IMG/VR virus record: IMGVR_UViG_2537562119_000008
Origin: a virus
Taxonomy: Duplodnaviria; Heunggongvirae; Uroviricota; Caudoviricetes
Length of the DNA: 5,379 nucleotides
Strand: one strand, 5' to 3'
The notes below the pieces were generated by a model. It searched no databases and had not been told where the DNA came from. It saw only the letters and a list, made by a program, of their open reading frames with translations. Positions 1 to 4,386 of the stretch are shown in pieces. The translations under genes and the position numbers were made by a program. Each line of letters opens with the position of its first letter. The stretch's first letter is position 1.

Positions 1-90
1 GCAAGGCTATACCAAAAAATCAGTGTAGGTTCAGAAAACGATGCACCATACAATCATCAATAATTTCAAATTGTCCATTGTGCATAAATC

Positions 91-133
91 ATAAAGAAAA
101 CCGCAGCACGTCGTATGCAAGAACGTGCTGCGG
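91..133 (-). terminator. Predicted intrinsic terminator-like hairpin distal to tI
   Basis: Perfect 10-bp inverted repeat CCGCAGCACG (101-110) / CGTGCTGCGG (124-133) with a 13-nt loop. On the minus strand it is followed by TTTTCTTTAT (reverse complement of 91-100). No T-tract follows it on the plus strand. Confidence 0.35.
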
Positions 134-2589: not shown

Positions 2590-2928
2590 TTATATCATTA
2601 ATTTTGTTTCGTGCCAGCCTTTGGTCACCCAGCATTGTGAGTCACCATTACACGGGCATGAATTAACAGGAACTCTCTCGCCGCACTTACCGCACCGTTT
2701 TCTGCTGATCGATTTTATACGCCAGCGCACACGTGCATCATCCTGGCGGCTCAGTAACGCGATGTACTCACCAAACTCGCAAGGCGCACGCCTGAAGCGA
2801 CGCGTGGCACAGTTACGCTCCAGCATTTCAATTTCCTGAGCATCAAGTACAAGCTCCAGCTTACGCATACCGGATGATGCTTGCTTGGCTCTCTGATCGG
2901 CTTTGTGCTCTGTTGCTGATTTAGCCAT
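2590..2928 (-). CDS. Cys-rich hypothetical protein (112 aa), possible zinc-ribbon / Ea8.5-like protein
   Basis: ATG start with RBS AGGAAAAG about 8 nt upstream. One hand-counted 60-nt sample gave about 55% G+C, typical of the lambda-like flanks. The C-terminal half has a CxxC...CxC...C cluster (RKRCGKCGERVPVNSCPCNGDSQC). It lies 28 nt upstream of the 143-aa ORF. It is in the approximate position of lambda ea8.5 and of similar size if translation starts at the internal Met21 (92 aa). Homology to Ea8.5 is not verified. Confidence 0.55.
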   Translation of the reverse strand: MAKSATEHKADQRAKQASSGMRKLELVLDAQEIEMLERNCATRRFRRAPCEFGEYIALLSRQDDARVRWRIKSISRKRCGKCGERVPVNSCPCNGDSQCWVTKGWHETKLMI

Positions 2929-2969
2929 TCTGCTTTTCCTGCATCAGGAGAAAGACAATCATGGCGGCG

Positions 2970-3071
2970 CGGATACTTCCGGTATCTTTTTACGCGATAT
3001 TCCCCTTCAATGGCACATACAAGAAGAGAGCCATCAACAGGAGTGATTGAGGAATCGACAACCAGCAACGC
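2970..3071 (-). pseudogene. Remnant of an S24-family peptidase gene (UmuD / LexA / CI C-terminal-domain-like fragment)
   Basis: The minus-strand frame just after a TAA stop encodes LLVVDSSITPVDGSLLVCAIEGEYRVKRYRKYP. This aligns with UmuD [33 protein letters not shown] and with the LexA motif VARIDDEVTVKRL. No upstream coding sequence for the catalytic Ser (GDSM) motif was found in any frame, and similarity is lost after about 33 codons. The supplied 105-aa ORF (2751-3068) starts at TTG and otherwise looks like read-on into the 112-aa gene region. Confidence 0.5.
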
Positions 3072-3836: not shown

Positions 3837-4134
3837 TGTAATTTCCTTTTACTTTTTACAAAGCGTTTAATCATGGCTGATTATCTCTAAGTGTAGTAAC
3901 AGCCTTGTGCGAAACATGTTACCAAATCGCCATTTCAGTGTATCCGCAGTTAGGCTGCCACTTCAAGGATTCCTAATTACATGGTACGTAAGCGTAAAAT
4001 CCCGTTGGTTGGCGGGTAATAACTCTGATCAAATCTCCCTTGTCTTTTGCTCTTACGTATGCAGCTCTTGTGTATTCAACCCAGGCCTCCAGTTCAGCAA
4101 TACGCTTACTTCCATCCGAGATAACACCTTCTAC

Positions 4135-4386
4135 TCACGCTGCTCGTTGAGTTTTGATTTTTGCTGTCTCCAGCTCAACACGCAGTTTCCCCACCGTTAG
4201 CGCAATATCCTCGTTCTCCTGGTCGCGGCGTTTGATGTATTGCTGGTTTCTTTCCCGTTCATCCAGCAGTGTCAGCACAATCGATGGTGTTACCAGCTCA
4301 TGGAAAAGGTCCGCGTCAAATCCCCAGTTGTCAGGCATTGCCTGCTCTGCCGCTTCACGCAGTGCCTGAGAGTGAATTACGCTCAC
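4135..4386 (-). CDS. ea22: Ea22-like protein, N-terminal part (83 aa) ending at an in-frame TGA; likely a disrupted gene
   Basis: GTG start overlapping the stop of the upstream TraR-like gene (GTGA), at the position where lambda ea22 starts. The N-terminus MSVIHSQALREAAEQAMPDNWGFDADLFHELVTP... resembles the conserved N-terminus of Ea22-family proteins as I remember them. The frame continues open for 53 more codons after the TGA (see findings). Confidence 0.5.
   Translation of the reverse strand: MSVIHSQALREAAEQAMPDNWGFDADLFHELVTPSIVLTLLDERERNQQYIKRRDQENEDIALTVGKLRVELETAKIKTQRAA

Follow-up and report, generated by a model that had tools for sequence, protein, structure and literature searches.

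The window analysed here, a 5,379-nucleotide stretch of DNA from IMG/VR record IMGVR_UViG_2537562119_000008, comes from a lambdoid prophage and represents its early-left (pL) arm, with the minus strand as the reading direction (Table 1). The gene order, exo, orf60a, orf63, TraR-like, ea22, ..., xis, int, is that of phage lambda, and the ea22-like gene occupies the position characteristic of its family, namely, within the exo-xis region, downstream of a TraR/orf73-like gene. The host prophage is lambdoid, of the Chlobot type; around the truncated ea22-like gene, 771 nt match Escherichia phage Chlobot (PP925838) and many complete Escherichia coli genomes at 100% identity, and in these E. coli genomes the prophage adjoins ybhC, i.e., the lambda attachment region.

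Table 1. Features of the analysed window, listed in the direction of the minus strand (haplotype B and contig L048 are introduced in the text).
Feature	Position	Strand	Remarks
orf60a/DUF1317	5347-5159	minus	
orf63/DUF1382	5186-4995	minus	
93-aa ORF	between orf63/DUF1382 and the TraR/DksA-like gene	minus	
TraR/DksA-like, lambda orf73-type gene	4604-4383	minus	directly upstream of the ea22-like ORF
ea22-like ORF, 83 aa	4386-4135	minus	GTG start 4386-4384; TGA stop 4137-4135
A5 run with +1 insertion	4162-4158	minus	A4 in lambda, haplotype B and the intact contig L048
Out-of-frame segment, 9 codons	4157-4132	minus	IKTQRAA(stop)V for lambda SKLNEQREYY
4-base deletion site	between 4132 and 4131	minus	TTAC of lambda GAGTATTACGAAGG gone
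Untranslated Ea22 remnant, 16 codons	4131-4084	minus	EGVISDGSKRIAELEA; last part of the Ead_Ea22 coiled coil
Phage-plasmid gene fragment, 79 nt	4083-4005	minus	WVEYTRAAYVRAKDKGDLIRVITRQP; fused in frame to the Ea22 stub
Last 10 codons and TAG	4004-3973	minus	TGFYAYVPCN, then TAG 3975-3973; the 3' end runs into the ColE1-like fragment
ColE1-origin-like fragment	3982-3867	minus	~80% identity to the origin region of small ColE1-type plasmids
204-aa secreted-protein gene	3836-3222	minus	
Degraded UmuD-like pieces, then DUF2513 gene	between the 204-aa gene and xis	minus	
xis	1835-1617	minus	
int	1639-569	minus	

The start of the ea22-like ORF is translationally coupled to the TraR/DksA-like gene, with the GTG start overlapping the TGA stop of its neighbour (GTGA). 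Over the first ~300 nt, the gene shares 94.6% nucleotide identity with lambda ea22, and its 83-aa product matches the Pfam family Ead_Ea22 (PF13935; IPR025153) with 74.8 bits, compared to a cutoff of 27, while covering only positions 2-110 of the 139-position profile. The first-pass annotation had reported that this ORF ends at a TGA, that the same frame remains open for 53 more codons and that the homology to Ea22 continues across the stop. Both the coordinates and the translation were confirmed: exactly 53 sense codons (VEGVISDGSKRIAELEAWVEYTRAAYVRAKDKGDLIRVITRQPTGFYAYVPCN; 4134-3976) separate the TGA from the next stop, a TAG, and within them EGVISDGSKRIA is identical to residues 87-98 of lambda Ea22, as translated from NC_001416, where the protein reads ...ELETAKSKLNEQREYYEGVISDGSKRIAKLESNEV... 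around these residues. The accompanying arithmetic, 83+1+53 = 137 aa against the 182 aa of lambda Ea22, is correct as well. The Ea22 similarity past the TGA is, however, restricted to the first 16 codons, and the rest of the 53-codon stretch is not Ea22. Taken alone, an open run of this length is only mildly unusual, given that stop-to-stop intervals of at least 53 codons account for 7.5% of those in the six frames of the window and 4.6% in shuffled sequences. We count the feature as real because the homology continues, not because of the length of the open run.

What appears to be a single in-frame stop traces back to two indels. Compared to lambda ea22 DNA, the window contains exactly two, an insertion of one A and a deletion of four bases, TTAC, without a substitution at the stop, and the same two-indel pattern is seen when the window is aligned, pairwise or in a multiple alignment, with lambda ea22 and a second haplotype of the locus (haplotype B, below). 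The insertion, GCAAAAATC in the window versus GCAAAATC in lambda, sits 21 bases upstream of the TGA, and the deletion, GAGTA-GAAGG versus GAGTATTACGAAGG, lies 3 bases downstream of it. The intervening 25 bases do not differ from those of lambda but are read one base out of register, and the TGA itself is the out-of-frame CG-TGA-G that lambda reads as CGT GAG. The 83-aa product thus consists of Ea22 residues 1-76 followed by IKTQRAA. Together, the two indels amount to a net change of -3 that brings the downstream remnant back into the Ea22 frame, and it is because of this restored register that the locus looks as if it carried one in-frame stop. Each indel on its own also terminates translation, the insertion at the very TGA discussed here and the deletion at a TAG (GAG TAG), and neither rescues the other. 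The Ead_Ea22 module is accordingly not complete in any one frame: the remainder of its N-terminal and coiled-coil parts lies past the TGA, with nine codons out of frame. Once both indels are repaired in silico, the sequence scores 100.2 bits and spans profile positions 2-139 of 139, with the domain ending at residue 101 of the repaired protein; in lambda, residues 2-101 cover profile positions 1-139 of 139. The complete domain is also retained in haplotype B.

Among the options that had been raised for this stop, a nonsense mutation can be dismissed, given that the TGA was exposed by the inserted A and that the flanking DNA is that of lambda except for the two indels. By contrast, the view of the gene as a pseudogene is borne out, its frame being broken by the +1/-4 indels. 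Indeed, the locus is already annotated as a frameshifted, incomplete Ea22 pseudogene: the RefSeq/PGAP call at the identical locus reads 'ead/Ea22-like family protein; frameshifted; incomplete; missing C-terminus' (e.g., DTO54_RS17820, E. coli AMSHJX01). That call, made independently, concerns the same sequence as the window, but it resolves neither the two indels nor the other alleles (with two TAG codons, intermediate or intact), and it does not say where the tail came from.

An error of sequencing or assembly, with a sense codon as the true codon at 4135-4137, was another of the earlier options. One of the indels is indeed located in a homopolymer, the A5 run, which is a typical site of such errors. 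The other, however, is a 4-base deletion outside any homopolymer, and phage Chlobot shares the 771 nt at 100% identity with dozens of complete E. coli genomes, which come from different laboratories, hosts and countries. Because the identical sequence recurs in an independently isolated phage, in at least 81 complete E. coli genomes and, with the same two indels, in 30 IMG/VR contigs, an error can be considered excluded for all practical purposes.

The third option was that the UGA is read through or suppressed. In such a scenario of programmed recoding, UGA would be decoded by near-cognate tRNA-Trp or as selenocysteine, yielding a 137-aa variant of Ea22. The 53 open codons downstream, the first 16 of which are in the frame of the Ea22 family, would fit this scenario, but the open frame is accounted for by recent coding ancestry combined with the net -3 indel pair. 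Furthermore, the nine codons that precede the UGA are out of frame compared to all other members of the family, so that a readthrough product would carry a scrambled segment of the coiled coil. Haplotype B has no TGA at all and contains two TAGs downstream, a contig with only the +1 insertion (L049) is out of register, and the substitutions in the tail are almost all non-synonymous. The 71 nt that start at the UGA have a minimum free energy of -11.8 kcal/mol, compared to a mean of -14.3 for shuffled sequences (z = +1.03), and 170 of the 200 shuffles fold at least as well; given that this segment folds no better than the shuffles, there is no SECIS-like element, and specifically no SECIS hairpin directly 3' of the UGA, where a selenocysteine site would have one. 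In this neighbourhood, TGA is also the stop codon of six conserved genes, namely, xis, the TraR-like gene, orf63 and three others in the window, and a G following UGA reportedly makes a comparatively efficient termination context in E. coli (Poole, Brown and Tate 1995). Neither does the conservation resemble that of a readthrough gene: the TGA is absent in haplotype B, in lambda and in the intact contig L048, and homologues preserve neither the stop nor the downstream frame. Thus, recoding finds no support in the out-of-frame codons, the TAGs of haplotype B, the lack of structure or the usual role of TGA in the neighbouring genes, and we regard it as very improbable. At most, full-length product is expected as a background of UGA misreading, and low-level readthrough that gives a minor 137-aa isoform is much less likely than the selected truncation discussed below.

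A rescue by frameshifting or slippage at the A run was considered as well. A +1 slip that skips one A of the A5 run would restore the lambda frame, which then encounters the TAG (GAG TAG) created by the 4-base deletion. The -1 frame is unrelated, and a slip at the homopolymer thus gives no longer product of the family. The runs on which transcriptional slippage is known to occur are, moreover, longer than A5.

The sequence downstream of the stop is heterogeneous. The similarity to Ea22 in the window ends at 4084 (~residue 101 of lambda); up to this point, the untranslated remnant matches phrog_250, and residues 87-101 of lambda Ea22, like the corresponding part of other Ea22-like proteins through ...RIAELEA, are identical or nearly identical to it. 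The next 79 nt display 87-90% nucleotide identity, over 70-79 nt, to Escherichia phage/plasmid records of ~108 kb (Cyrano CYRAN_97, pRM9131-1), where they belong to the interior of a hypothetical gene encoding ~210-220 aa (CYRAN_97-like, WP_000108705-type). At the protein level, this piece corresponds to positions 137-165 of 208 in phrog_21749 and 150-178 of 284 in phrog_20174 (E ~1e-8), with the tail residues WVE(C/Y)TRAAYVRAKDKG(E/D)L(T/I)RV(V/I)T matching the protein interior. Unlike members of these two families, however, the tail includes only ~26 of the ~210 residues and is a fragment rather than a domain or a family member; the donor protein itself showed nothing significant when compared to Pfam. 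For the last 10 codons (TGFYAYVPCN), no homologue was found. They are followed, with a short overlap, by the ColE1-origin-like fragment, which covers ~50 nt upstream of RNAI together with the first ~60 nt of RNAI; the related plasmids are of the Rop/MobA ColE1 type and 3.1-9 kb in size. The RNAI family (Rfam RF00106) had no match in the window at E<=1, nor in the 3867-3982 sub-region at E<=10; for comparison, the RNAI of a homologous plasmid scores 80.3 bits, and ~60 of the 102 RNAI positions are present in the window fragment. We note as an observation in its own right that a piece of a plasmid origin (3867-3982) resides inside a lambdoid prophage, between the ea22 remnant and the 204-aa gene.

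Judging from these similarities, the post-Ea22 tail is a 38-aa patchwork and not a domain; it is a chimera that ends in ...YVPCN, where a C-terminal domain (CTD) with a K/RGE end would be expected of an Ea22 protein. The proposal that the 3' part of ea22 was replaced by a moron block hence holds with respect to the replacement, but not with respect to the block, given that the phage-plasmid and ColE1-like fragments intervene before the 204-aa gene. A protein search with the tail recovered only 6 short ORFs from public assemblies (P0001-P0006), all ending ...RIAELEAWVEYTRAAYVRAKDKGDLIRVITRQPTGFYAYVPCN. Their N-termini derive from TraR-like residues 1-29, from orf63 residues 1-11 or 1-17, or from other sequences, which suggests that the ORFs arose when deletions inside the exo-xis region fused these N-termini in frame to the tail. 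When the protein of contig L048 was used as the query, 6,127 Ea22-like matches were obtained; the best 120 of these 6,127 all stop aligning at ...RIAELEA, and none of these 120 carries the tail found in the window.

This junction coincides with a site that is well known in the Ea22 family. The boundary between the coiled coil and the CTD of Ea22 is at ~S102, and ea22 genes are mosaic, with unrelated CTDs that share a common K/RGE end being swapped there (PMC10834534, PMC7093339); this end motif is reported for Ea22 proteins (PMC7093339), and typical relatives terminate in ...RIKGE. Because the similarity to lambda ceases at ~residue 101, beside the published coiled-coil/CTD boundary, we place the junction at the known mosaic boundary. 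The mosaic variants from Stx and other lambdoid phages (Ea22_V1-V3 and the ~199-aa ...RIAELEA-REVQLPTRY...RIKGE type) share the N-terminal and coiled-coil module up to ...RIAELEA and switch their 3' modules at the same boundary as the window (PMC10834534), but what they acquired is a folded CTD of 50-130 aa, compared to the 38-aa tail here. Lambda ea22 (182 aa; PF13935), a pro-lysogenic gene of the exo-xis region, has the same operon position after the TraR/orf73-like gene and the same GTG start, and residues 1-76 and 87-101 are recognisably the same protein. By contrast, in the window the frame is broken by the +1/-4 indels, the product stops at 83 aa, and the dimeric CTD (residues 102-182) with its K/RGE end is absent, with unrelated fragments in its place (PMC7093339, PMC10834534).

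The locus is widespread. Among complete E. coli genomes, at least 81 records match the 251 nt downstream of the stop at 99% identity or more, most of this stretch is present in 131, and the 771-nt query is covered to at least 80% in 118. A scan of IMG/VR by junction pattern yielded 36 contigs, which, combined with E. coli and phage loci, gave 42 copies for classification of the alleles. These 42 copies fall into only two haplotypes, with perfectly linked alleles. Haplotype A (34 of the 42, including the window) contains the +1 insertion, the -4 deletion and an open junction (GAG 4089-4087 / TGG 4083-4081). Haplotype B (8 of the 42; e.g., E. coli EC21Z-014 and PI12) contains neither indel and holds the frame of lambda through ...EGVISDGSKRIAEL, where TAG GCC TAG at the domain junction terminates a 101-aa stub. 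Further decay is evident in some copies, including an additional T frameshift (L033), a third stop (L026) and deletions that fuse exo to the ea22 remnant (L037 and L046). Two haplotype B contigs from IMG/VR (L027 and L039) contain a 9-nt in-frame tandem duplication (GTGCTGGAACT..., resulting in LELLELL) in the N-terminal Ea22 ORF.

An intact allele was found neither in the 128 carriers of the locus among 5,426 complete E. coli genomes, where the best match to a synthetic intact query (no indels, open junction) was a haplotype A allele at 96.9%, nor in the 36 contigs from the junction-pattern scan; GTDB representative genomes yielded no match at all. A separate scan of metagenomes for sequences in which TTAC is present and the junction open identified two contigs. 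One of these, L049 (OGYT01011605; 107-416), has the inserted A, retains TTAC and is out of register; it looks like an intermediate but could be a recombinant, and the order of the two indels is thus tentative. The other, L048 (UERY01005753; 307-879, minus strand), from a human-gut metagenome at ~2.5x coverage, has neither indel nor any stops and encodes an intact Ea22-like ORF that ends ...RIAELEAWVEYTRAAYVRAKDKGELIRVITCQPTGYYAYVPCN and is 190 codons long when counted from the first start, or 182 aa when translation begins at MSEINYQ.... It is the sole intact short-tailed Ea22 variant that we found and has a longer N-terminus of the Stx-phage type; instead of representing the ancestor, this single contig may be recombinant or chimerically assembled.

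The relationship between the two haplotypes can be polarized by outside sequences. G 4089 is common to the window and lambda (CTG GAA), whereas TGG 4083-4081 and a GCT are common to the window and the phage-plasmid donor; therefore, the two stops of haplotype B, along with an A-to-F change, are derived. The common ancestor accordingly had an open frame across the junction. In the tail, the two haplotypes differ at 8 codons, comprising 2 nonsense, 5 non-synonymous and 1 synonymous change, a pattern to be expected without coding constraint. The polymorphisms in the 83 codons of haplotype A include 4 non-synonymous and 2 synonymous ones, tiny numbers that reveal no clear constraint.

Taken together, these findings lead us to propose, with a probability of roughly 0.86, that the ea22-like gene of the window, situated in the exo-xis region of a lambdoid prophage of the Chlobot type, is a decaying remnant inactivated by indels. 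The exo-xis region as a whole is dispensable for replication (PMC10834534). Under this scenario, decay would have been stepwise. The normal CTD would first have been replaced at the mosaic boundary, after ...RIAELEA (~residue 101), by the phage-plasmid fragment, joined in frame, and then the ColE1-origin-like fragment, producing a short-tailed ORF such as that of L048. As comparison of the alleles shows, an A was inserted into the A4 run in the lineage of the window, shifting the frame, exposing the hidden TGA and cutting the product to 83 aa, a stage that L049 seems to represent. The 4-base deletion, evident from the same comparison, would have followed, 3 bases past the stop, in sequence that was by then untranslated, and the net -3 effect, a one-in-three chance, returned the dead downstream part to register. 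The sister lineage, represented by haplotype B, kept the frame and gained the two TAGs at the junction instead, and other copies have accumulated further frameshifts, stops or deletions.

What remains of the gene is probably still expressed. Given that a Shine-Dalgarno sequence, GAGAGG, is present ahead of the 83-aa ORF and that the GTG start overlaps the stop of the TraR-like gene, the stub is probably translated from the pL transcript. In published work, Ea22 activity is tied to the full-length tetramer, and the CTD alone is inactive; no data on the N-terminal part alone were found in the literature. Because of this link to the full-length tetramer, the 83-aa stub, devoid of the end of the coiled coil and of the CTD, is most likely inactive or only weakly active. 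Nevertheless, the stub may have retained some function, given that its allele is widespread and that Chlobot, which carries it, is a phage isolate that forms plaques.

Alternatively, truncation could have been selected for. The CTD-less stub, 83 aa in the window and 101 aa in haplotype B, would then be a functional short isoform that arose by convergent truncation of an ancestral short-tailed fusion, once by the +1/-4 indels and once, in the sister lineage, by the two TAGs, the tail having been removed twice independently as harmful or useless. Compatible with this possibility, both independent routes stop translation close to where the coiled coil ends and leave the start, the ribosome-binding site and the N-terminal ORF intact in most copies, the allele is frequent and is found in a phage that is viable, and haplotype B keeps the complete Pfam Ead_Ea22 domain. 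The stub encoded in the window, however, lacks the last quarter of the domain and terminates in 7 out-of-frame residues, the N-terminal part of some copies has suffered additional frameshifts, stops or deletions, the few polymorphisms in haplotype A (above) give no clear sign of constraint, and published Ea22 activity belongs to the full-length tetramer, with the CTD alone being inactive. Thus, we consider selected truncation unlikely, albeit clearly less so than recoding. If true, it would turn a CTD-less coiled-coil stub into a functional, perhaps dominant-negative, modulator of the lysis-lysogeny decision.

Under the preferred reading, namely, stepwise decay of a remnant, the feature is real but ordinary and matters little in itself, and the 83-aa ORF should remain annotated as a pseudogene. 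Its broader implication is that an apparent in-frame stop followed by continuing homology can arise from a pair of compensating indels; because such indels mimic an in-frame stop, a DNA-level alignment to relatives should precede any interpretation in terms of readthrough or a selenoprotein. The locus further provides a small example of stepwise decay in the exo-xis region, with intact, +1 and +1/-4 alleles beside an independent TAG/TAG lineage. The boundary of the Ea22 CTD, in turn, appears to be a recombination junction that accepts even fragments that are not domains.

Several minor observations concern the surroundings of the locus and the database records. Opposite the ea22 remnant, an antisense 97-codon ORF with a GTG start (3907-4200, plus strand) encompasses a hypothetical CDS annotated in Chlobot (XNS39575.1, CDS0046); the gene call is probably spurious, given that this ORF matches no PHROG and that the strand opposite to it derives from coding sequence. 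The region at 2590-3068 (minus strand) is annotated inconsistently: Chlobot has a 'UmuD-like protein' plus a small 'transcriptional regulator', whereas RefSeq lists a pseudogene for a 'DNA repair protein' (missing C-terminus) and, next to it, a hypothetical protein of 112 aa that carries the label 'internal stop' in other strains. A further gene of this block thus seems to be in decay. Beyond int, on the att/host-flank side of the window, positions 37-132 (plus strand) yield a sub-threshold Rfam match to CssrB, a chromosome-encoded Shigella sRNA (44.1 bits compared to a gathering score of 76; E = 1.1e-6), which consists mainly of the 3' terminator hairpin. Finally, the GenBank record MW057783.1, 'Campylobacter phage CJLB-4' (48,361 bp), in which ea22 and the TraR gene are annotated, has the coverage and identity of the lambda records at nearly identical coordinates and looks like a lambda genome deposited under the name of a Campylobacter phage.
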